64,000 nucleotides of DNA, taken from a virus (lineage: Duplodnaviria; Heunggongvirae; Uroviricota; Caudoviricetes). The DNA lies in the IMG/VR virus record IMGVR_UViG_2671180747_000017; one strand, given 5' to 3'. This document shows positions 15,112-39,238 of this stretch, one piece after another. The notes under the pieces were generated by a model. The model ran no database searches. It worked only from the letters and a program-made list of their open reading frames with translations, and was not told the DNA's origin. The position numbers and the translations under genes are program-made. Numbering within the stretch: position 1 is the first letter of the stretch; the number at the start of each line of letters is the position of its first letter.

Positions 15112-17538
15112 TTAAACCTTTTCGATCTGGACAAGATTGCTGTGCGACGGGTTTCCCTTTGCCAGCGGTGAAGGGCGGTGAGAGGTCAGAATATTGATAC
15201 TGCCGCCGTGATCGACCCGGTCACCAAACATATCCGCTTTAAGCCACGCACCTTGCCCGATGGCGGTAACGCCAGGCAGAATACGCGGAGTCACTTTTGC
15301 GGCAATCAGCATTTCTCCATTATTGTTAAATACCCGCACGGTATCGCCATGACGGATACCGCGTGCCTGAGCATCAATGGGGTTGATCCACACCTCTTGT
15401 GGGCAGGCCTGCTGTAACACATCAATATTGCCGTAGCTGGAGTGGGTACGCGCTTTGTAGTGGAAGCCCGTTAACTGCAGTGGATAGGTTTTCCGCAGGG
15501 GATCGTCCCAGCCATCAAAACCTGGGGTATACGCAGGAAGGGGATGAATAATTTCATCTTTTTTCAATTCCCAGGTATCTGCAATCTTCGCCAGTCGTTC
15601 AGAATAAATTTCGATTTTCCCCGAAGGTGTTTTCAACGGGTTTGCCTGTGGATCTTCACGGAATGCGCGGAAAGCGACGTAGTGTTCTTCCGGGCATTTT
15701 TTCTTAAAGATCCCGGTCGTTTTCATCTCCTCGTAGTCGGGCATCTCAGGGTTACGTTCCTTCGTTTTCGCATGGAGATATTTGATCCATTCATGCTGAC
15801 TGCGACCTTCAGTAAAGGTTTGATAAACGTCTGGTCCTAAGCGTTTGGCGACTTCACTCAGCATCCAGTAGATGGGTTTGCGTTCAAATTTTGCTGAGGT
15901 TGCGGGTTGGGCGAGGATCACATAGCCCATATTCCCTGCAGATTCATGAGAGATAAGGTCTTCTTGCTCTGTTGGCATCAGGTCGGGCAACAGGATATCG
16001 CAATACTTAGCCGAGGCCGTCATGAAGAGGTCAATGCCAACAATCATCTCGCACTTGCTGTCATCCTGAAGCACCTCATGGGTGTGATTGATGTCGCCAT
16101 GTTGATTGATCAATGTGTTACTGGCGTAGCACCATAAAAACTTGATGGGGACATCCAGTTTTTCTTTTCCACGAACACCATCACGGGTCGCGGTCATTTC
16201 CGTACCATGGTCGATGGCATCTGTCCATGTAAAGACGGAAATCTGCGTTTTAACAGGATTCTCAAGCATCGGGAACCATTCTACCCCCAGATCCCAGCTA
16301 CCTTCGCGTACACCTGAGTTGCCGCCGTTTATGCCGACGTTACCGGTGAGAACGGAAAGCATGGCAATAGCGCGGGACGTTTGCTCGCCGTTGGAATGTC
16401 GTTGTGGCCCCCAACCCTGACAAATATAAGCAGGTTTTGCTGAACCGATCTCTCGTGCCAACTGGATAATTTTTTCTGCCGGGATGCTGGTGATTTTTGC
16501 TGCCCATTCCGGCGTTTTAGCTATGCCGTCAGGCCCTTCGCCCAGAATATAGGCTTTATAATGCGCGTTACGTGGTGCGTTGGCGGGCAGCGTTTTTTCA
16601 TCGTAACCAACACAATATTTGTCGAGAAATGGCTGATCGACCATGTTTTCAGTAATCAGTACCCAGGCAATCGCACAGGCCAGTGCGCCATCGGTGCCAG
16701 GGCGAATGGGCAGCCATTCATCTTCACGCCCGGCAGCAGTGTCGTTATAACGTGGATCGATGACGATCATGCGTGCGTTTGAACGTTCGCGGGCTTGCTC
16801 GACGTAGTAAGTGACACCACCGCCGCTCATCCGCGTTTCTGCCGGGTTATTTCCGAACATAACGACCAGTTTCGTATTGGCGATATCATCCGGGCTGTTG
16901 CCATCATTGGCACCGAACATATAACTCATTGCGGCACTGATCTGTGCGGTACTGTAGCTGCCATAGCGACTGAGAAAACCACCGCAAGAGTTCATCAGAC
17001 GGTACGGGACGTTTGAGTTGGTGATGTTTCCGCCATCTACGCCTGTTCCGTACAGGACATGTACAGCCTCATTGCCGTAATCTTTCAGGATCCGCCGAAG
17101 ATTATCACTGATGGTATCCAGGGCTTCGTCCCAACTTATCCGTTCAAATTTACCTTCACCGCGCTTGCCGACGCGCTTCATGGGATATTTCAACCTATCA
17201 GGATGATTCATCCGTCGGCGGATAGAGCGCCCGCGTAAACACGCTCGAACCTGATGGTTACCGTAGACGTCGTCACCTGTCGTATCAGACTCCACCCAGT
17301 ACACGGTGTCATCTTTCACATGCAAACGTAACAGACAGCGGCTCCCGCAGTTAACGGTGCAGGAACTCCAGACCGCTTTCTCTTCTACCGGAGCCTCTGC
17401 CGCCCGGACCATTTGGGAAAATGGCAGAGTGAAAGCACTGCTTGCCAGCGCAAGACTGCCAAGTGCGGAGGTTTTCATCAGACTTCTACGGCTGATTTCA
17501 GCCTTCATGAGCGCCTCTGTGGTATGGATTTTCATCAT
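15112..17538 (-). CDS. ynfF: DMSO-reductase-family molybdoenzyme catalytic subunit, intact (808 aa)
   Basis: ORF track; Tat signal SRRSLMKTSALG, CTVNCGSRC Fe-S motif; synteny ynfE-ynfF-ynfG. Confidence 0.9.
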   Translation of the reverse strand: MMKIHTTEALMKAEISRRSLMKTSALGSLALASSAFTLPFSQMVRAAEAPVEEKAVWSSCTVNCGSRCLLRLHVKDDTVYWVESDTTGDDVYGNHQVRACLRGRSIRRRMNHPDRLKYPMKRVGKRGEGKFERISWDEALDTISDNLRRILKDYGNEAVHVLYGTGVDGGNITNSNVPYRLMNSCGGFLSRYGSYSTAQISAAMSYMFGANDGNSPDDIANTKLVVMFGNNPAETRMSGGGVTYYVEQARERSNARMIVIDPRYNDTAAGREDEWLPIRPGTDGALACAIAWVLITENMVDQPFLDKYCVGYDEKTLPANAPRNAHYKAYILGEGPDGIAKTPEWAAKITSIPAEKIIQLAREIGSAKPAYICQGWGPQRHSNGEQTSRAIAMLSVLTGNVGINGGNSGVREGSWDLGVEWFPMLENPVKTQISVFTWTDAIDHGTEMTATRDGVRGKEKLDVPIKFLWCYASNTLINQHGDINHTHEVLQDDSKCEMIVGIDLFMTASAKYCDILLPDLMPTEQEDLISHESAGNMGYVILAQPATSAKFERKPIYWMLSEVAKRLGPDVYQTFTEGRSQHEWIKYLHAKTKERNPEMPDYEEMKTTGIFKKKCPEEHYVAFRAFREDPQANPLKTPSGKIEIYSERLAKIADTWELKKDEIIHPLPAYTPGFDGWDDPLRKTYPLQLTGFHYKARTHSSYGNIDVLQQACPQEVWINPIDAQARGIRHGDTVRVFNNNGEMLIAAKVTPRILPGVTAIGQGAWLKADMFGDRVDHGGSINILTSHRPSPLAKGNPSHSNLVQIEKV

Positions 17539-17595: not shown

Positions 17596-18622
17596 TTATA
17601 TTTTTTCGATCTCGACCAGATTAGTGTGCTGCGGGTTTCCCTTCGCCAGTGGTGAAGGGCGCAGAGTGGTTAGCGTATTCACACAGCCGCCATGGTCGAT
17701 TTTATCGCCAGACATATTGGCCTCGTGCCAGGCTCCCTGGCCCATAGCGCTAACTCCAGGGAGAATACGTGGTGTTACTTTGGCTGGTAGCCGAACTTCG
17801 CCACGATGGTTAAACACCCGCACCATATCGCCGTTGGCAATCCCACGTTTCTGCGCATCTATAGGGTTGATCCACACCTCCTGACGGCAGGCAGCCTTCA
17901 GGAGATCAATATTGCCGTAGGTCGAGTGAGTACGGGATTTGTAATGGAAACCAAACAGTTGCAGTGGGAAGGTTCTACGTTCAGGGGAGTCCCAGCCTTC
18001 AAAGGTAGAGGCATAAACTGGCAGTGGGCTTATCACTTCATCTTTTTCCAGTTCCCAGGTACGGGCAATTTCCGCCAGCTTGCTGGAATAAATTTCAATC
18101 TTACCGGAAGGTGTTTTAAGTGGATTTGCCTCGGGGTCGTCACGAAATGCTTTGTAGGCGACAAAATGACCATTGGGATCTTTACGCTTATAGATACCCA
18201 TTTTTTTCAGTTCGTCGTAAGACGGTAACGCCGGATCTTTGGCAAGCATTTTGGCGTACAGATGTTGTAACCATTGTTCCTGCGTGCGACCTTCAGTGAA
18301 CTTTTGATAGACGTCAGGTCCAAGACGTTTCGCGACTTCACTCAGGATCCAGTAAATCGGTTTGCGTTCGAATTTTTCGCTGGTGACAGGCTGGAGGAAA
18401 ATGAGATATCCCATGTTACCGGCGTAGTCGTTAGGAATAATATCTTCCTGCTCAACGGTCATCAGGTCTGGCAGCAGAATGTCGGCATATTTTGCCGATG
18501 AGGTCATAAAGTTTTCGATGACCACAATCATTTCGCATTTCGATTCGTCCTGCAGAATTTCATGCGTTTTGTTGATGTCAGAATGCTGATTAACGAGGGT
18601 ATTTCCCGCGTAGTTCCAGATG
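17596..18622 (-). pseudogene. ynfE: ynfE C-terminal fragment (distal part of the disrupted gene)
   Basis: Paralogous to ynfF C-terminal half; the ynfE-derived reading frame begins at the junction (...SIWNYAGNTL) and the track ORF N-terminus is island-derived. Confidence 0.85.
18612..18622. repeat. attL core direct repeat AGTTCCAGATG
   Basis: Identical 11-mer at both ynfE breakpoints. Confidence 0.8.
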
Positions 18623-18687
18623 GACTCCATTGTCAGACGGATGGATGGACTTGAAGTAGTTGACTCAATGCTACTTAAGGTCCTGAT

Positions 18688-20271
18688 ATGACTGACATTA
18701 ACCATGATAATACTGTATATCCATCCAGTTCTTTCTCTGGGTCTCCCTATCTGTATCAGCAAGTCTGCACCTCAAGTCCTGACACAAGGCTGACACAAAT
18801 CAATCTACTCAGCGTAGCTAAGCCTCAGTTAGTCCGTAGAGCCAATGGTCGATATACTATCCGCTTCAGACTCAAGGGACAGACCATCCCGTTTCTTTCA
18901 GTATCGACCCGAAGCACAGACAGGAGAGTAGCCACAATGCGTCAGAGAGAGCTTGCAGCCACAGCTAAGTCCTTCATGTTGGATAGGCCTGATGTCTCGC
19001 TACAGGAGCTTACGGACCACCTCCGGTCTATGGCTGAGCAGTTCCTGACAGACGCCAGTGATGACTACTGGAATGGACTTGAGGTCGCTACTCTGGTGGA
19101 CGAGAAGTCCAACCTGAAGGAGCTAGCCGCTACGCAAGCCTTGAGTCTGGACCAGCAGAAGGGCATAAGGTTAGCGCTTGAAGTCCTGACCGCAGCACAG
19201 CAGAGGGTAGACACTGGTGATGCCTCTGGTCTGATTAAGCTGATTGATGATAATAACCATACTGATTACTCAACTATAGGCGACTCTACGTCAATTCTGA
19301 AGAATGAGCAGGGGGATAGACCAGCAGTTTTCACACAGGAGCGTCAGCCATCTGTGGTTTTTTCAAGCCTAGTGTCCTCGCTGCTGGCTGAGAAGGTCCA
19401 GACCCTGAAGTCCTCCAGCTACAAGGACCTGTCGTCCTCACTGAATACCGTCTCTCGGTTCTTACCTGAAGACATGGACCTGATGTCCCGCTCTGAGTGG
19501 CTGGCTGTCAGGGACTCCATGCTGGCTGCTGAGGTGAGACCATCGACAATCAACAAGCTGCTGACTAAGGCGAAGATGTGTCTTGATTATGGCCTGATGA
19601 ATGGGCAACTTGAGGGCCGCAACCCTATTGAACGGATGAAGCTGACCAAGGATATCGACTCCAAGCGCAGAGCGTTCACAGACGAGGAGCTGGAGAGACT
19701 TCTGGTCCGTGTTGAGTCTGAGTATCAGTTCACACGACACACGGCTCACACGACCTCTGAGGCCCGTAGATGGGCGTCTCTGGTGTCTGTGGTCACTGGC
19801 GCGAGGTCTGCTGAAGTCTGCCACCTGACTAAACGTGACATTGTCACCTTAGACAACGGTTTAACCTGCATCGACATCAATGAAGATGGGGACGGTAAGT
19901 CTGTGAAGAACAAACATTCAGTCCGACTTGTACCGCTGACCGATGGGGCCTGTGGGTTCGACCTGAAGTCCTTCCTTGAATGGGTAGACACGCAGCCTGA
20001 CGACGGCGGTCCTCTCTTCGGGATGACTCCGAGCGCCTACTCTAGCTGGTTTAACTCTAGGGTCCTGACTGAGGCACTGGGAGACGCTGAGAACGTTTCT
20101 CTCCATAGTCTGAGGCATTGGCTGGCGACCCGAATGAAAGAGCGTGGAGTCAATCTGGTGGACGCTCAGGGCATCTTAGGCCATAGCAGTCAGTCAATTA
20201 CGTATGACCTGTACGGGAAAGGACACGCTGTTGGTAGGCTGGCTGAGGTGCTGAAGACAGCTTTACTTTAA
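18688..20271 (+). CDS. int: Tyrosine recombinase / integrase of the island
   Basis: C-terminal HSLRHWLATR and LGHSSQSITYDLYGKGH (H-x-x-R and catalytic Tyr); N-terminal GRYTIRFRLKG arm-binding-like segment; true start uncertain because arm-type repeats lie at 18780-18798. Confidence 0.85.
   Translation: MTDINHDNTVYPSSSFSGSPYLYQQVCTSSPDTRLTQINLLSVAKPQLVRRANGRYTIRFRLKGQTIPFLSVSTRSTDRRVATMRQRELAATAKSFMLDRPDVSLQELTDHLRSMAEQFLTDASDDYWNGLEVATLVDEKSNLKELAATQALSLDQQKGIRLALEVLTAAQQRVDTGDASGLIKLIDDNNHTDYSTIGDSTSILKNEQGDRPAVFTQERQPSVVFSSLVSSLLAEKVQTLKSSSYKDLSSSLNTVSRFLPEDMDLMSRSEWLAVRDSMLAAEVRPSTINKLLTKAKMCLDYGLMNGQLEGRNPIERMKLTKDIDSKRRAFTDEELERLLVRVESEYQFTRHTAHTTSEARRWASLVSVVTGARSAEVCHLTKRDIVTLDNGLTCIDINEDGDGKSVKNKHSVRLVPLTDGACGFDLKSFLEWVDTQPDDGGPLFGMTPSAYSSWFNSRVLTEALGDAENVSLHSLRHWLATRMKERGVNLVDAQGILGHSSQSITYDLYGKGHAVGRLAEVLKTALL
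18780..18798. repeat. Two direct TGACACAA arm-type repeats, 11-bp spacing, left end of island
   Basis: TGACACAAGGCTGACACAA read directly; same motif triplicated at the right end. Confidence 0.7.
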
Positions 20272-20348: not shown

Positions 20349-20376
20349 GGAGGGTGATAATAATCATAATCCCTCC
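20349..20376 (+). terminator. Hairpin downstream of integrase (GGAGGG, 16-nt loop, CCCTCC), no clear U-tract
   Basis: Read directly about 80 bp after the int stop. Confidence 0.25.
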
Positions 20377-20483
20377 TGACTATAGGCCCACTGGTTCGCC
20401 TTCGGCTGTCAGACTCTAAGTCTGTATGTGGTCTTATTTAAACTGGTTCCCTAACTCCAGTACTCCAAATTCCTATGGTCTCC

Positions 20484-20690
20484 TCTTGACATTCCTGTTT
20501 AACTGTGAGTCGCCTCTGGTCTCTCTTTATATATACTTCCTTAATTCCTGAGGCGTCTTTAGTCCTTGACATCCAGTCCAGCCTGTGAGTCACATCCGGT
20601 CCTCCCTCTTTATATATACTTCCTTAATTCCTAGGGTCGCCTTAATCCTTGACATCCAGTCCAGCCTGTGAGTCACATCCTGTCGCGCTA
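20484..20690. repeat. Three tandem direct repeats, period about 80-83 bp, each with TTGACAT...CTGTGAGTC; the first two also carry CTCTTTATATATACTTCCTTAATTCCT
   Basis: TTGACA at 20486, 20566, 20649; CTGTGAGTC at 20503, 20583, 20666; 27-mer at 20523 and 20606. Confidence 0.75.
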
Positions 20691-20713
20691 CTGTATGCAT
20701 CACCAGTGATGGA

Positions 20714-20736
20714 CTTGATTATCACTATAGGGGAAC
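20714..20736 (+). promoter_or_regulatory. T7-group phage RNA polymerase promoter-like site, copy 1 (predicted +1 G at 20730)
   Basis: TCACTATAGGG matches T7 consensus positions -8 to +3 exactly; upstream specificity region (ATTA) differs from T7/T3/K11/SP6; 35 bp upstream of an ORF with AGGAG RBS. Confidence 0.6.
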
Positions 20737-20764
20737 CAACTAATTCAACTACAGGAGATACTCT

Positions 20765-21133
20765 ATGGCACGACCAATCGCAACTCACGACAACACGTTC
20801 ACCAAAGCCTACTTGCAGCAGCACTGCGGGGACCTGCTGTCATTCGATGGTCAGGGCGACCTGAGTGGTTGGCTGGATGATGTCCTTACTGGTGCTGGTC
20901 GCCTGAACGAATCAATGGCAAGCAATACCAAGCCTGTCAGCCCATACTTGATTCTGACCCAACTACTAACGCACGACACATTAACTGTAAGCGCTGTACA
21001 GGAGTCCCTGAGCCGTAAGCGTGTTGCCTTGGGTGAACCTATGGTTTCAACTCGCTACGCTCGCTACGTCTATGCTACCGTCGTCAGCGCCAGTAAATCC
21101 GTCCAGTACCACGCCAGTAAAGCTGGTTCATGA
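20765..21133 (+). CDS. 122-aa protein, first gene downstream of phage-type promoter 1, unknown function
   Basis: ORF track; ACAGGAGATACTCT-ATG gives an AGGAG RBS at good spacing. Confidence 0.65.
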   Translation: MARPIATHDNTFTKAYLQQHCGDLLSFDGQGDLSGWLDDVLTGAGRLNESMASNTKPVSPYLILTQLLTHDTLTVSAVQESLSRKRVALGEPMVSTRYARYVYATVVSASKSVQYHASKAGS

Positions 21134-21142
21134 TTACGGACC

Positions 21143-21165
21143 CTAAACTATCACTATAGGGAGAC
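21143..21165 (+). promoter_or_regulatory. T7-group phage RNA polymerase promoter-like site, copy 2 (predicted +1 G at 21159)
   Basis: TCACTATAGGGAGA matches T7 consensus positions -8 to +6 (14/14); shares TATCACTATAGGG with copy 1; same strand. Confidence 0.65.
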
Positions 21166-21422
21166 CAGCCTCCGCCTCTGAGTCTGATGCGTCAGAACAT
21201 GCGAGCATCTGGTCAACCGACATTAAGTATCTCTCCTAAGTAATCAAGGCATGTGACCGCCTCTGTCAGACCTCGTGTATCGACCTCCAGCTCGTTAGCG
21301 TTCTCGTGTCTTCATTATGATTTGGGTCTATCACCGCTCACCATCTGGAAGTCCTTACAGCTCGTCCTGACATGCGGTCTCACCTTTATATGGCTGGAAG
21401 AGACCTCCTCTGTCAGACGCTA

Positions 21423-21470
21423 TCTAACCAACCCAGAAAACGGGTTTGTTAAAAAGATTAACATGGGTCT
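21423..21470. repeat. Direct repeat copy 1, about 47 bp (TCTAACCAACCCAGAAAACGGGTTTGTTAAAAAGATTAACATGGGTCT)
   Basis: Near-identical second copy at 21619-21665; contains short hairpin AACCC-AGAAAAC-GGGTT. Confidence 0.7.
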
Positions 21471-21490
21471 CCACCTTCATGAGGACCGCT

Positions 21491-21504
21491 CCGGAAATTT
21501 CCGG
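21491..21504. repeat. 14-bp perfect palindrome CCGGAAATTTCCGG between the two 47-bp repeats
   Basis: Read directly. Confidence 0.7.
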
Positions 21505-21618
21505 ACCGTGAACGGGTGGCTCTATCACAGGTCGCGAAAATGGAAACCTGCTTAACGTCCCCAAAACTGAGCAGTCACCATTCTTAACGGGTCCAAATTT
21601 GGGCGCGTTGGCGAGAAG

Positions 21619-21665
21619 TCTAACCAACCCAGAAAACGGGTTTGTTAAAAAAGTTAACATGGTCT
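21619..21665. repeat. Direct repeat copy 2, about 47 bp
   Basis: About 45 of 48 positions identical to copy 1; 196 bp spacing. Confidence 0.7.
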
Positions 21666-21793
21666 TCACACGACCTCATTACCTCAAGTCTTTCTGTATG
21701 TCTCCTGTTGCCTGTGAGTCTCCCTATCGTTGGGGGCTTGAGTAGGCTTTCAGGGTGTGACTTCAGGAGGCATAACAAAAGGAGTACAACGAT

Positions 21794-22552
21794 ATGTCAA
21801 CTCAACCCTTAATGAAGCATGAAGTAGTTCTTCCTGTCATCGTTGACGGCTATCACTGGGCCTGTAATCAGGACCGTATGTGGAACCTGAACGAGCTACA
21901 TAAAGAGCTTGAGCTTCCATCTGCTAAGGAGCCGGGTCAGTGGCGTTCTAGCGTCAGGACGCTTCTTGACCAAGATGCAAATCTGCATGTTGCTCATGGT
22001 GGTTCGACTCCGGGGACATGGGCTACTGAAGAGGCGGCTATTGCCTATGCGATGTGGGTCTCACCTGATTTCTACCTTAAGGTCATCCGTGCTTTCATCG
22101 CTTTACGTAACGACAAAGTGTCGGAAGCTAAGGCGCTGGCGCAGGACTCCAAGGAACTTAAGGGTCTCAAGCCTATAGCCCGTAACTGGCTGGAAAAGCT
22201 GGATAACCCGAAGCAGGGCCACACCCTGACAGAGTGTCTTAAGAATCTCGACTTCAGGTTAGGTACAAAGCTGGTATCAGCCAAGGCTCTTAATGCCGTA
22301 TTGAAGTCAGGGCGTATAGCTAATCCCTTCTATAGTCGCAAGCTGGACGGTCGAGGACAGCCTGTATTTGACATCTCGTCAGGTGGCTGGATGACCAGCT
22401 TCAATCCTAAGGGTCTGGAGAACGGCTATTACCGTCTTCAGGATAACCACTATAACGGTCAGGAGGGGCTTAAGGTCCTCACCAAGGGTTACGAGTGGCT
22501 TAAGTCCAACAAGGTCGAGCTGGTTCGTCTGTGCGCTAAGGGAGGACTCTAA
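21794..22552 (+). CDS. KilA-N domain protein (DNA-binding), 252 aa
   Basis: AAGGAG RBS; N-terminal ...LHVAHGGSTPGTWATEEAAIAYAMWVSPDFYLKV resembles KilA-N/APSES-type domain. Confidence 0.7.
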   Translation: MSTQPLMKHEVVLPVIVDGYHWACNQDRMWNLNELHKELELPSAKEPGQWRSSVRTLLDQDANLHVAHGGSTPGTWATEEAAIAYAMWVSPDFYLKVIRAFIALRNDKVSEAKALAQDSKELKGLKPIARNWLEKLDNPKQGHTLTECLKNLDFRLGTKLVSAKALNAVLKSGRIANPFYSRKLDGRGQPVFDISSGGWMTSFNPKGLENGYYRLQDNHYNGQEGLKVLTKGYEWLKSNKVELVRLCAKGGL

Positions 22553-22553
22553 G

Positions 22554-22721
22554 ATGATTGACCCGCGCACACCTGAGGGCCGCATGACTCTCCGTTACCG
22601 TGGCTACCGGACTGAAGTCCTCCTCAGAGAGCTTGGTCTAGACCCGGAAGATGAGACCCGCCAGCACCAATCCCGAGACGAGCTGATAGCGCAACTGGTC
22701 GCTATGAAACTGTCTGCCTAA
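22554..22721 (+). CDS. Small 55-aa protein, not in ORF track
   Basis: ATG immediately after the upstream stop (TAAGATG coupling); MIDPRTPEGRMTLRYRGYRTEVLLRELGLDPEDE...; read by eye. Confidence 0.4.
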   Translation: MIDPRTPEGRMTLRYRGYRTEVLLRELGLDPEDETRQHQSRDELIAQLVAMKLSA

Positions 22722-22817
22722 TTTTAAAACCTTTTGAGATGACCGATGCGGGGAGACCCGTAGGCGCTACTGCGTCTGCGATACCGATAGTCTCAACTCT
22801 CAAGAGGAGAATTACCT

Positions 22818-23309
22818 ATGATGTTCAACAACAACAACTGGAAGCTGTCAGTCACCGACATCAACCTTTATGAAAACACTGTGAGTCTGGACGGTCAGTC
22901 CTATCCGTTGTCGCTCGCTATCAAGACCCTGATTCCGGGCTACCTGTCAGGACTGCCGTCTACCAGCCGTGAGTCTATGGAGTTACTGGAAGCTCTGGCT
23001 GAAGCTGGTGTAGCTATTGGCAACTTCTTCAGTAATGACCTGATGACCGCCTATGGTCGCCGCCAGCAGAACAAGCGAGCTGAGGCTGAGCGTATCGCTA
23101 AAGAGCAGCGCATTCAGGCCGAGCGCATGCGTGAAGAGAACATGACTGATGCAGAGTGGCAGAAAGAGCTACAGCGCCGCGAACAGGTCAAAGCTGAACG
23201 CCGGACCTATGGTGAGAACCTCCGCAGTGCTACCCATTCCGCTGGTCGCTCCCGTGCCGCTATTGTCGCTGACCTTGAGTCAGGCGGTAACTGGCTGGAC
23301 AGCTTATAA
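22818..23309 (+). CDS. 163-aa protein with basic coiled-coil C-terminal half, unknown function
   Basis: ORF track; GAGGAG RBS; Arg/Glu/Gln-rich heptad-like segment AEAERIAKEQRIQAERMREE. Confidence 0.6.
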   Translation: MMFNNNNWKLSVTDINLYENTVSLDGQSYPLSLAIKTLIPGYLSGLPSTSRESMELLEALAEAGVAIGNFFSNDLMTAYGRRQQNKRAEAERIAKEQRIQAERMREENMTDAEWQKELQRREQVKAERRTYGENLRSATHSAGRSRAAIVADLESGGNWLDSL

Positions 23310-23393
23310 GACACACAGTCCCTGACCCGATGTTAGGGACTCCTCAGTTTTGAGGACTCACAGTATTTAAACTAATTTAGGAGATTGATTATT

Positions 23394-24380
23394 ATGACGA
23401 TTAAAGACGCTTTCCAGTTTGGCATTGAGCCAGTACGCATCACCGATACCGACAACATTCAGGTCAATGAAGGTCTGCCGACTAACGCTGACCCGCAGGT
23501 CTACGCCCTCCAGTTAGCTAAGACGGTTAAGGCTATGCTGAACGGTGTACTTAAGGACGCTCAAGAGAACATCCCGTTCCCTGTAGAAGTCCTGCCGACC
23601 CGTAACAGCTTACCGACCCCAATCATTGCCCACACTCTGACTGACCGCTCTGTGGTCGTTCCTGTCCGTGGTGGCAAGCGACCTGAAGTCGTGACCGTTC
23701 CGTCTGGACAAGAAATCGTGGTCGAACCAATCGAGCAGGCTATTCTCATCTCTGAGCAGACCAAGCTCTGGGACGCCAAGTCATCCACCGGATTCACTCA
23801 GGGCACACTTCAGCAGGACGCTATGAACATCTGTGAGAATGTGGTCCGTACCATCAACGCTCGCATGGTCGACGTTCTGGAATCCTCTAAGCTGCTGAAG
23901 ACCGTAGAGCTTCCTGTCCTGACTGGTAGCCTGACCGCTAAGGCAGACGCTATCATGGACGCTCTGTATGAGAACACAGAGTCTTCTTTCGGTTCTGAGG
24001 TGTCTGACTACGGTATTATCGCTCATGAGAGCCAACTGAAAGCACTGTCCCGTCTGGCTGCTAAGCAAGGCTTCTCCGGTGAAGACGCTATCGTCGATAT
24101 GCTGGGAACAGACATCGCCTACTACAACGGTGAAGACAAGGGTGTATTCATGCTGGCTAAACGCTTCACGGCTCTGAGCTTCGGTTGCTTCCGTCACGAT
24201 GGCGAGAATATTACGGTCGTCCTTTCACGTGATGGCGACTCTCAGTCCCACGACTTGGAAATCCTCGGTAAAGTGTTCGTTGTCGCTGAAGCTGCTACGA
24301 CCATCAAGATGGGCACTGGCTCAGCTACTGCCGTCCTGCCTGTAGTCAAACGCCTGAAGTTCACCAAGACCGAAGCGTAA
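23394..24380 (+). CDS. 328-aa protein, unknown function (largest island cargo gene)
   Basis: ATG 23394 with TAGGAG RBS (track start 23385 is TTG); no motif I can assign. Confidence 0.65.
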   Translation: MTIKDAFQFGIEPVRITDTDNIQVNEGLPTNADPQVYALQLAKTVKAMLNGVLKDAQENIPFPVEVLPTRNSLPTPIIAHTLTDRSVVVPVRGGKRPEVVTVPSGQEIVVEPIEQAILISEQTKLWDAKSSTGFTQGTLQQDAMNICENVVRTINARMVDVLESSKLLKTVELPVLTGSLTAKADAIMDALYENTESSFGSEVSDYGIIAHESQLKALSRLAAKQGFSGEDAIVDMLGTDIAYYNGEDKGVFMLAKRFTALSFGCFRHDGENITVVLSRDGDSQSHDLEILGKVFVVAEAATTIKMGTGSATAVLPVVKRLKFTKTEA

Positions 24381-24385
24381 GACCA

Positions 24386-24625
24386 ATGGGTAAGAGCATT
24401 AGTAAAGGCTTCAGGTCCATCGCCAAGGGCCTGACAGGTGGTGGTGGGACTCAAGGTGGGGCTTCGGTCCCGCCTCCTGTAGCTCCTCCTGTAGCTCCTC
24501 CAGATGACGCTCAGCAAGCTGTAGTCGATACCCAAGGTCAGGAGACCGAGGGAGGTAAGACCATGAGCAGAGGTAAGTCTGGACTGAATATCAGCAGGAC
24601 TTCAGGTGGTGGCCTGTCACTGTGA
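24386..24625 (+). CDS. 79-aa Gly/Pro-rich basic protein
   Basis: ORF track; GGGGTQGGASVPPPVAPPVAPP low-complexity; follows 328-aa gene by 5 nt. Confidence 0.45.
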   Translation: MGKSISKGFRSIAKGLTGGGGTQGGASVPPPVAPPVAPPDDAQQAVVDTQGQETEGGKTMSRGKSGLNISRTSGGGLSL

Positions 24626-25169: not shown

Positions 25170-25200
25170 TGACACAAGGCTGACACAAAGCCTGACACAA
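25170..25200. repeat. Three direct TGACACAA arm-type repeats (11-12 bp spacing), right end of island
   Basis: TGACACAAGGCTGACACAAAGCCTGACACAA read directly. Confidence 0.7.
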
Positions 25201-25257
25201 AGTCCTTGACTCAATGCAGGACCTCAGGCCTACTAAGGGTCCGCTTCAAGTCCTTGA

Positions 25258-25268
25258 AGTTCCAGATG
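25258..25268. repeat. attR core direct repeat AGTTCCAGATG
   Basis: Identical to 18612-18622. Confidence 0.8.
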
Positions 25269-26668
25269 AACTTAATGGGCACATCCAGTTTATCTTTGCC
25301 GCGGACGCCGTCGCGGATTGCCGTCATTTGCGGACCATGATCGATAGCATCTGTCCAGCTGAAGCAGGAGATTGACATTTTGACCGGATTATCCAGCACC
25401 GGCAGGCGTTCTATGGTAATGGTATAGGTCGATTCACGCGCGCCACTATTTCCGCCGCTGATGCCGACATTGCCCGTCAAAATAGGTAACATAGCAATAG
25501 CGCGTGCAGTCAGTTCGCCGTTTGCCTGGCGTTGCGGCCCCCAGCCCTGGCAGATATAAGCGGGTTTTGCTGTGCCAATTTCACGCGCCAGTTTGATGAT
25601 ACGGTCTACCGGGATACCGGTAATTTGCGAAGCCCACTGCGGCGTTTTCGCTGTGTTATCATCACCTTCACCAAGAATATAGGCTTTATAGTGACTATTT
25701 TTGGGTGCATCTGCGGGTAAGGTTTTTTCGTCATAGCCGACGCAGTATTTATCGAGAAAAGGTTGATCAACGAGATTTTCGTTAATCAATACCCAGGCAA
25801 TACCCGCAACCAGCGCGGCATCGGTGCCCGGGCGAATAGGGAGCCATTCATCTTCACGACCAGCAGCCGTATCGGTATATCGCGGATCGATAGCAATCAT
25901 TTTGGCGTTCGATTTCTCGCGCGCTTTTTCAAGAAGATAAGTGATGCCACCGCCGCTCATGCGGGTTTCTGCCGGGTTGTTACCAAACATCACGACCAGC
26001 TTGCTGTTTTCAATATCCGTGGTGCTGTTGCCATCATTACTGCCGTAGGTGTAGGGCATGGCACAGGAAATTTGCGCGGTGCTGTAGGAGCCATACTGAT
26101 TGAGTGAACCGCCGTAGCAGTTCATCAGGCGTTTGACCGCCGAGGCTGATGGCGAAGAGCGGGTCATATTGCCGCCAACGATCCCCGAAGAGTACTGAAT
26201 ATATACAGCCTCATTGCCATATTGTTCGACGGTTTTCTTCAGGCTACTGGCGATAGTATCCAGGGCTTCATCCCAGCTAATCCGTTCGAATTTGCCTTCG
26301 CCGCGTTTGCCCACGCGTTTCATTGGGTAATTCAAGCGATCGGGATGATTAATACGCCGACGGATGGATCGACCACGCAAACAGGCGCGTACTTGATGAT
26401 TGCCATACTCGTCGCTGCCGGTGTTGTCAGTTTCCACCCAGGTGACTTCATTATCTTTAACATGTAGACGAAGTGCACAGCGGCTACCACAGTTGACGGA
26501 ACAGGCACCCCAGATCACTTTTTCGCTGGCCTGTTGTACCGCTGCCGCTGCACTGCGCAGGGTGAACGGTAAAGAAAAACCGCCTGCAGCCAGCGCCAGA
26601 GAACCTATCGCGGTTGATTTAACGAGTGTTCTGCGGCTGATGCCCACCATTCGGTCATTTTTGGACAT
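25258..26668 (-). pseudogene. ynfE: ynfE N-terminal fragment (promoter-proximal part of the disrupted gene)
   Basis: Tat signal GISRRTLVKSTAIG, CSVNCGSRC motif; colinear with ynfF to ...DVPIKFIWN, then island-derived residues and stop. Confidence 0.85.
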
Positions 26669-38733: not shown

Positions 38734-39238
38734 ACAGGCTCGTGAGGCTCTGGATGCCTGGATATGTCGACCAGGAATGACACAGGAGCAGGCGACGATA
38801 TTAATCACTGAAGCATTCTGGGCTTTGAAAGAGCGCCCGAACATCGATGTTCAGCGTGTCACAGATGAAGGTGGCGCGGTTGATCAGCGAGCGCTTGGCG
38901 TTAATCGAGTGAAGATATTCGAACGCTGGAAGGCTATCGACACCAGGGATAAGCGTGAAAAGTTCACGGCGCTAGTGCCTGCAATTATGGAGGCTATCCG
39001 GATTAATGATTTCAGGTTGTATCGTGAAATTAGTGACGGAAAAAGCATCACGTACATGATCGCCGGGTTAAACAAAGAATATGGCGATGTGGTGGAGTCC
39101 GGACTGCTTTTTGCTGATCCTGCCGTAGTGGATCGTGAAACTGACGAACTTATAGAAAAAGCAATTGCTTTCAAACTTGCGTATCGACAGCAATACCAAC
39201 AAAAAGCTGGATGGAATTATGAGCCTTCTTTTTGCTGA
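38717..39238 (+). CDS. YdaT-like prophage protein
   Basis: ORF track; position after the Cro-like gene as in Rac (racR-ydaS-ydaT). Confidence 0.6.
   Translation: MKITPEQAREALDAWICRPGMTQEQATILITEAFWALKERPNIDVQRVTDEGGAVDQRALGVNRVKIFERWKAIDTRDKREKFTALVPAIMEAIRINDFRLYREISDGKSITYMIAGLNKEYGDVVESGLLFADPAVVDRETDELIEKAIAFKLAYRQQYQQKAGWNYEPSFC

Follow-up and report, generated by a model that had tools for sequence, protein, structure and literature searches.

What is the product of a small gene placed between two phage-type promoters in a bacterial chromosome, and under what circumstances would it be made? The question is raised by the window studied here, the whole 64,000-nucleotide (nt) stretch of IMG/VR record IMGVR_UViG_2671180747_000017, in which an open reading frame (ORF) of 122 amino acids (aa), hereafter ORF122, lies in an integrase-bearing island of ~6.65 kb (coordinates are collected in Table 1). 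A preliminary description regarded it as a candidate effector, possibly a toxin or an anti-phage protein, and as the first product of the island, should this be infection-triggered. ORF122 is a real gene under strong purifying selection. On present evidence it is to be regarded as an uncharacterised accessory gene rather than as a demonstrated effector. The reading that we tentatively favour is that it encodes a nucleic-acid-binding accessory factor, which would be made only when the RNA polymerase of a helper phage is present.

The ORF lies exactly where the preliminary description had placed it, with its ribosome-binding site downstream of the first promoter (Table 1). Homologues could be found at identities from 99% down to about 25%. 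In comparison with the alleles of two other islands (L025 and L026, 82–84% amino-acid identity), the ratio of nonsynonymous to synonymous substitution rates (dN/dS) was 0.10 and 0.11, at dS values of 1.05–1.38. AlphaFold2 modelled the protein as a single compact domain, in which six helices are accompanied by a two-stranded bridge, with a predicted local distance difference test score (pLDDT) of 80.3 when 11 sequences were used, and a pLDDT of 89.8 and a predicted template modelling score (pTM) of 0.83 when 56 were used. Because of its homologues, its low dN/dS and this confident fold, ORF122 is more than a chance ORF.

The statement that the protein has no recognisable family holds for Pfam, NCBIfam and PADLOC, in none of which ORF122 had a match (0 PADLOC families at E<=0.1), but it does not hold for PHROG, in which a full-length profile match to family 23123 was obtained (E 1.1e-8, residues 1–119). 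Among 43 family members, 36 matched PHROG 23123 and 25 matched PHROG 3360, both of which are phage families of unknown function. An exhaustive profile search returned 74 cluster representatives of the ORF122 family at E<1e-3, and tblastn homologues were found in lytic phages, including Aeromonas phage 85AhydR10PP, Salmonella phages 7-11 and SE131, Cronobacter phage GAP52 and others. The isoelectric point (pI) of ORF122 is 7.9; the family core has a median pI of 8.8, and its C-terminal half a median charge of +3. A structure prediction followed by a fold search, as had been proposed at the outset, gave a confident fold and matches among predicted phage structures, but no match in the PDB. Foldseek searches, which used the 11-sequence model (pLDDT 80), aligned it with the predicted structures of uncharacterised proteins of phages RaK2, phiK7A1, 98PfluR60PP and P3_CHA at query-normalised TM-scores of 0.58–0.75, and the two best predicted-structure matches reached 0.74–0.77; against the PDB, neither Foldseek nor sequence searches with ORF122 and the family profile returned a match. 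The family profile found no homologue among all ORFs of the Kayfunavirus phage Peacock, which served as the reference for the helper type, and the longer relatives of ORF122 had no Pfam domain consistently fused to them. A plant XH-domain protein, P0036, was considered as a relative and was discarded as a spurious match. When genomes were scanned with close relatives, the sole return was a Shigella flexneri copy identical to that of the window.

The cores CACTATAGG of two promoters, P1 and P2, occur at 20723 and 21152, on either side of ORF122. A promoter weight matrix was built from the nine promoters of Peacock, and the whole 64-kb window was scored with it. P2 obtained 35.7 bits, with Peacock's own promoters spanning 30.9–38.6, and P1 obtained 23.0 bits, below that range; after these two, the best remaining site in the window reached 2.5 bits, which bears out the earlier call of a phage-type promoter, a genuine member of the T7 family, directly before ORF122. 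P2 is identical at 25 of 25 positions to promoters of many Kayfunavirus phages, with about 8 sites per phage genome, and the phages that share this 25-mer are K1F-like phages of Escherichia, Salmonella Typhi and Enterobacter. P1, including the upstream TGGACTT, is identical at 21 of 23 positions to the right-end promoter of Peacock. The two promoters lie on the same strand at a spacing of 429 nt, and those of sister islands are 28–31 nt apart.

The RNA polymerase domain (RNA_pol, PF00940) had no match in the nine island ORFs scanned. Since the promoters occur without a polymerase gene of their own, the + strand island genes would be read only when a K1F-type phage supplies the polymerase, and island expression should, judging from these promoters, depend on an infecting K1F-type phage. 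ORF122 would then depend on the weaker P1, and the downstream genes would be served both by read-through from P1 and by P2. Because P1 is sub-consensus and P2, which lies after the ORF122 stop and would drive the downstream genes, is consensus, ORF122 is promoter-proximal and not necessarily the first or the most abundant product, contrary to the description of it as the first product made.

The identity of the helper is further suggested by the other genes of the island. Because the island encodes a homologue of gp6.7, the T7-group protein of virion assembly and host range, it is most probably a satellite of phages of the K1F type (Kayfunavirus, T7 family). The satellite context comprises the integrase, the gp6.7 homologue, a weakly gp14-like protein, a hairpin like one of the helper, and the likeness of P1 to the helper right-end promoter. 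Given the gp6.7 homologue and the weakly gp14-like protein, the island may alter helper virions. The island setting envisaged for ORF122 is upheld in that the gene lies in an integrase-bearing island with no RNA polymerase gene among the ORFs scanned.

In 10 of 13 distinct island loci, the gene that comes first after the recombinase belongs to the ORF122 family. This count brings together an all-against-all comparison of nine loci, the surroundings of the gene in L025 and L026, and the lack of it in L027 and L028. In the nine-locus comparison the family was present in eight loci, more widespread than any gene except the recombinases. It follows a tyrosine integrase in the window, in the S. flexneri island (L016), in L025, L026, L007, L009 and L019/L020, and, as a 155-aa allele, in strains UMNK88 and NT1F31; it follows a serine resolvase in L011 and L021. 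Each copy in those islands sits behind a variant of the T7-family promoter. Despite its different recombinase, L021 shares the KilA-N, 55-aa, 163-aa and 331-aa genes with the window island. In phage contexts the family gene opens an early operon: it precedes the gene of a single-subunit RNA polymerase by three genes in phage contig L013 and is the first gene of a divergent operon in phage L023, and in L014 and L022 it adjoins HNH endonucleases. The family is ancestral and frequent, and it is not essential to the island class. Because it is the commonest island-specific gene after the recombinase, ORF122 is a sensible first target for deletion.

The promoter of the first gene differs among alleles (L001 3472–3494, upstream of the gene in L025 and L026, and in L007, L011 and L021), with the variants CACTATAGGGGAAC, CACTTTAGGAACG, CACCGTTAGAGAAC, CACCCTAGGAGAGAC, a T3-like form and AATAAACCCTGACCATAGGAGAG. 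In the E. coli islands examined, the next promoter is of the K1F type and near consensus. Different helper polymerases may share the first gene, or it may be adapted to one or another of them.

Among E. coli islands, ORF122 occupies an exchangeable slot together with P1 and the non-coding sequence upstream. In UMNK88 and NT1F31 the slot holds the 155-aa protein, which has 25% identity to ORF122 and is a distant homologue of it (hhalign probability 97.6%, E 3e-12); the proposal that the slot holds random cargo was rejected in part on account of this occupant. Strain 2017.18.04CC retains only a remnant. HNH genes replace or adjoin the family gene in three unrelated contexts (L006 2361–3095, in E. 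coli MB50; L014 7860–8264; L022 4149–4682), as if the family gene or its surroundings were a homing target. A second type of E. coli island, found in strains MS 145-7 (L027) and 10153 (L028), occupies tRNA-Gly next to ETT2, a remnant of a type III secretion system; it has three K1F-type promoters, a Rha regulator instead of KilA-N, and a DUF4145 gene that overlaps the integrase stop codon or is fused to the integrase gene at its end. Of 5,426 complete E. coli genomes, 310 carried the structural module (22554–24625) and 86 the ORF122 module.

The non-coding cis-module linked to ORF122 contains TTGACAT-N13-CTGTGAGTC three times, flanking an AT-rich box, CTCTCTTTATATATACTTCCTTAATTCCT (CTCTTTATATATAC..TTCCTTAAT). 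An 83-bp tandem duplication (20520–20601 and 20603–20684), seen in this window only, has doubled the box. Close variants of it precede the start codon by 152–168 nt in the window, in the islands L016, L007 and L009 and in L013, the phage contig with a polymerase gene; these five loci amount to four independent contexts, as L016 carries the window's own allele. The distance is 51 nt in L019 and 428 nt in L014, and in L023 the box is in reverse orientation. The search pattern for the box had one match only in the rest of the window. In L025 and L026 the box has been kept, although the synonymous sites of the adjacent gene are near saturation (dS about 1). It is absent from the helper-type phage. 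The box was also considered as a sigma-70 promoter or a known RNA, for which there was no promoter call and no Rfam match, and the T7 class II pause site (ATCTGTT) has no occurrence in the island.

Two further sequences are shared with the helper type. Peacock has exactly two copies of the motif CCT(G/T)TGAGTCAC, a short way inside the boundary of its left terminal repeat, and the window likewise has exactly two, which lie in the cis-module; this pattern was picked post hoc. The Peacock counterpart of the hairpin GGAGGGTGATAATAATCATAATCCCTCC is non-coding and lies between the right-end promoter and gene 19.5, and a match to the hairpin lies within about 1 kb of the record end in most of the listed Kayfunavirus records and 3–8 kb in for several. 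The hairpin has been kept in all E. coli island variants examined, and its resemblance to the helper sequence suggests that it may be a borrowed cis-acting signal.

How could these observations fit together? Upon infection by a helper phage that makes its RNA polymerase, and only then, ORF122 would be produced from a deliberately weaker P1, with the downstream genes expressed from P2. The protein would bind nucleic acid and, in the infected cell, would serve the satellite in an accessory or a regulatory capacity. Its likeliest target would be the co-travelling cis-module, or else helper DNA or transcripts, and its effect would be to tune a satellite-specific step, which could be transcription, replication start, or the recognition of DNA ends for packaging. 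This reading is based on the basic folded domain, the purifying selection, the helper-type promoters, the position as the commonest first island gene and the co-moving cis-module; the nucleic-acid binding, the target and the affected step are what we infer. As a whole, we propose it tentatively, as a real possibility that falls short of being probable.

Several observations weigh against it. Homologues occur in phages without a T7-type polymerase (7-11, GAP52, RaK2 and PAK_P3-like phages), so that the function cannot be specific to T7-type transcription. The slot of MB50 holds an HNH_3 endonuclease and no family gene, and the tRNA-Gly islands L027 and L028 have the promoters and lack an ORF122-family gene. 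Since both the MB50-type and the tRNA-Gly islands do without it, the gene is dispensable for the island class, and the proposal that the family is universal in this class was rejected on the same grounds. In addition, the UMNK88, L011 and L021 alleles, like several phage homologues, have no AT-rich box upstream.

A more specific version is that the ORF122 family is a specificity factor of T7-type phage satellites, which would be produced only upon firing of P1 by the helper RNA polymerase, would recognise the module of box and repeats and would hand the satellite DNA to the replication or packaging of the helper. The linked module resembles the short-repeat region next to the helper terminal repeat. 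We regard this version as unlikely. If true, it would explain for the first time at the molecular level how T7-like phages are parasitised, and a protein family that many lytic phages carry would gain a function.

The same gene could instead encode an effector directed at proteins, which would neutralise a helper or host protein, in helper interference or in host takeover, in the manner of satellite interference proteins or of the small early phage proteins T7 gp2 and gp5.5. We consider such a role possible, if somewhat unlikely. The early or first-operon positions of homologues in unrelated lytic phages would agree with it, as would the character of the slot as a hotspot, which in otherwise near-identical islands may be filled by alleles 25% identical or by an HNH gene, or be empty, and so would the dispensability of the gene for the island class and a first-gene promoter that varies by allele. 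However, selection within an allele class is purifying rather than diversifying, no helper partner or mimicry was demonstrable and Peacock has no homologue, and a purely protein-directed role would leave the conserved linked cis-module unexplained. An abortive-infection toxin or anti-phage effector, by which the infected cell would be killed upon the appearance of the phage polymerase, would fit the gating by that polymerase, which has the logic of a suicide module. Nevertheless, no support was found for the toxin or anti-phage function that the preliminary description had thought plausible: ORF122 has no toxin match in PADLOC or Pfam and no membrane or enzymatic signature, its promoter is weak, it is under purifying selection, the family is carried by lytic phages in their early regions, and the virion-protein homologues in the island suggest transfer and not suicide. 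We judge this function highly doubtful.

Equally doubtful is a role against restriction or other defences, comparable to that of T7 gene 0.3 (Ocr), with which the first gene was originally compared. Ocr is an acidic DNA mimic. ORF122 is likewise small and promoter-proximal, and its homologues lie in early phage regions, but the domain is basic and not an acidic mimic, neither Pfam nor PHROG gave a match to Ocr, Ard or another anti-defence family, and the Ocr homologue of Peacock is the fifth gene, so that the analogy fails. Moreover, in a naive recipient without phage polymerase the gene would be silent at the time when incoming satellite DNA needs protection. The constant position directly downstream of the recombinase, whether tyrosine or serine type, could also point to an excisionase (recombination directionality factor) that triggers excision of the island upon helper infection; a small basic protein would suit this role, and gating by the polymerase would couple excision to infection. 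Against this, the islands of the window and UMNK88 are about 93.5% identical in the integrase and attachment (att) regions but only 25% in the first-gene alleles, an integrase without a family gene is retained in MB50-type and tRNA-Gly islands, homologues occur in lytic phages without integrases, and no Xis-family match was obtained, which makes an excisionase very improbable. The nucleic-acid-binding accessory factor, which would be made under control of the helper polymerase, remains the reading that we prefer.

Table 1. Positions of ORF122, its control elements and the other island features in the window
Feature	Position	Strand	Remarks
Left junction core AGTTCCAGATG	18612..18622		ynfE C-terminal fragment resumes here
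Tyrosine integrase	18688..20271	+	Pfam Phage_integrase E 1.8e-13; PHROG 1 E 3e-42
Hairpin GGAGGGTGATAATAATCATAATCCCTCC, 28 nt	20349..20376	+	78 nt after integrase stop; 27/28 identical to Peacock 38757-38784
Exchangeable module (cis-module, P1 and ORF122)	20472..21138		Swapped as a block among E. coli islands with flanks 93-99% identical
Conserved non-coding cis-module upstream of ORF122	20480..20700	+	Repeats flanking AT-rich box
Promoter 1 (P1), K1F-type T7-family variant GGACTTGATTATCACTATAGGGGAA	20711..20735	+	Predicted +1 at 20730; sub-consensus
Shine-Dalgarno AGGAG	20753..20757	+	7 nt before ORF122 ATG; direct sequence reading
ORF122 coding sequence	20765..21133	+	122 aa; ATG at 20765, TGA at 21131-21133
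Promoter 2 (P2), consensus K1F-type ACCCTAAACTATCACTATAGGGAGA	21140..21164	+	Predicted +1 at 21159; 10 nt past ORF122 stop
KilA-N domain protein	21794..22552	+	First gene after P2; Pfam KilA-N E 1.3e-9
163-aa protein	22818..23309	+	L021 homologue carries DUF6971; weak T7 gp14 resemblance (E 0.018 vs Peacock gp14)
331-aa conserved island protein	23385..24380	+	Without family assignment
79-aa homologue of T7-group gp6.7 virion assembly protein	24386..24625	+	phmmer vs Peacock gp6.7 E 1.5e-11; PHROG 1320 E 1.8e-11
Right junction core AGTTCCAGATG	25258..25268		Second repeat copy

The island, all genes of which are on the + strand, is inserted in ynfE, whose fragments cover 17596–18762 and 25211–26668, and an imperfect 24-nt direct repeat at 18612 and 25258 marks its ends. 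The gene order is integrase, ORF122, KilA-N, a 55-aa ORF, the 163-aa, 331-aa and 79-aa genes and then two small ORFs. The disrupted gene, ynfE, encodes a subunit of the dimethyl sulfoxide (DMSO)/selenate reductase family; its paralogue ynfF (15112–17538) is intact. ynfE was already among the genes interrupted by an integrative element in the TIGER survey, and excision would restore it, which may be compared with the 'regulated gene integrity' of the same study (PMC7192596). Just inside both island ends lies a perfect 20-nt direct repeat, TGACACAAGGCTGACACAAA, at 18780–18799 and 25170–25189, the copies of which may be arm-type sites of the integrase. The left copy falls in the annotated 5′ part of the integrase ORF, and the repeats cast some doubt on the annotated integrase start. 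A non-coding stretch of 630 nt (21164–21793) directly after P2 contains a 44-nt repeat (at 21423 and 21619; 95% identical) and a small hairpin. This stretch is a candidate origin of replication by analogy with the primary origin of T7, where an AT-rich region follows tandem promoters.

T7-like phages are long-established model viruses with a strictly lytic life cycle, and the literature searched contained no experimentally characterised satellite that parasitises them. If the islands are active satellites, there would be consequences for phage therapy with K1F-type phages and for gene transfer in E. coli and Shigella. The class to which the island belongs is not new and was already described in 2006: Chen and Schneider (Nucleic Acids Res) reportedly gave a computational description of islands with tandem T7-like promoters. 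These islands are said to contain an integrase, two or three T7-like promoters, no polymerase and few phage-like ORFs, to have terminal direct repeats, a size of 4–13 kb and signs of mosaic recombination, and possibly to depend on T7-like phages; reportedly, no function was assigned to their first ORF. The window island shows the features ascribed to that class, namely co-oriented promoters, no polymerase among the scanned ORFs, an integrase, end repeats and a corresponding size. The likeness extends to the tyrosine integrase followed by T7-family promoters, the few phage-related ORFs, the shortness of the terminal repeats, the length of a few kb, the enterobacterial hosts and the mosaic recombination.

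Satellites of virulent phages include the PLE of Vibrio cholerae, whose helper is ICP1, and the PICMI of Vibrionaceae (PMC7145576, PMC10803314). They resemble the window island in being small, integrase-bearing and silent until a lytic helper infects, and in having incomplete sets of structural and replication genes with few helper-related genes, PICMI being similarly minimalist. In contrast to them, induction of the window island would run via promoters read directly by the single-subunit RNA polymerase of the helper; no sequence relation of ORF122 to PLE or PICMI genes emerged in the searches run. T7 Ocr is, like ORF122, a small protein near the start of a transcription unit, but the two have no homology and are opposite in charge character, and ORF122 is placed on a phage-polymerase promoter whereas Ocr is placed on an early host-polymerase promoter. 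Compared with the members of PHROG 23123 and 3360 in lytic phage genomes, ORF122 is chromosomal, island-borne and wired to the promoter of a foreign polymerase. To the known island class the present analysis adds, on the one hand, Kayfunavirus as the probable type of helper, the homologue of gp6.7, the hairpin like that of the helper and the resemblance of P1 to the helper right-end promoter; on the other hand, it adds a first-gene family that is spread over islands with tyrosine and serine recombinases as well as lytic phages, together with its purifying selection, its confident fold and its linked cis-module.
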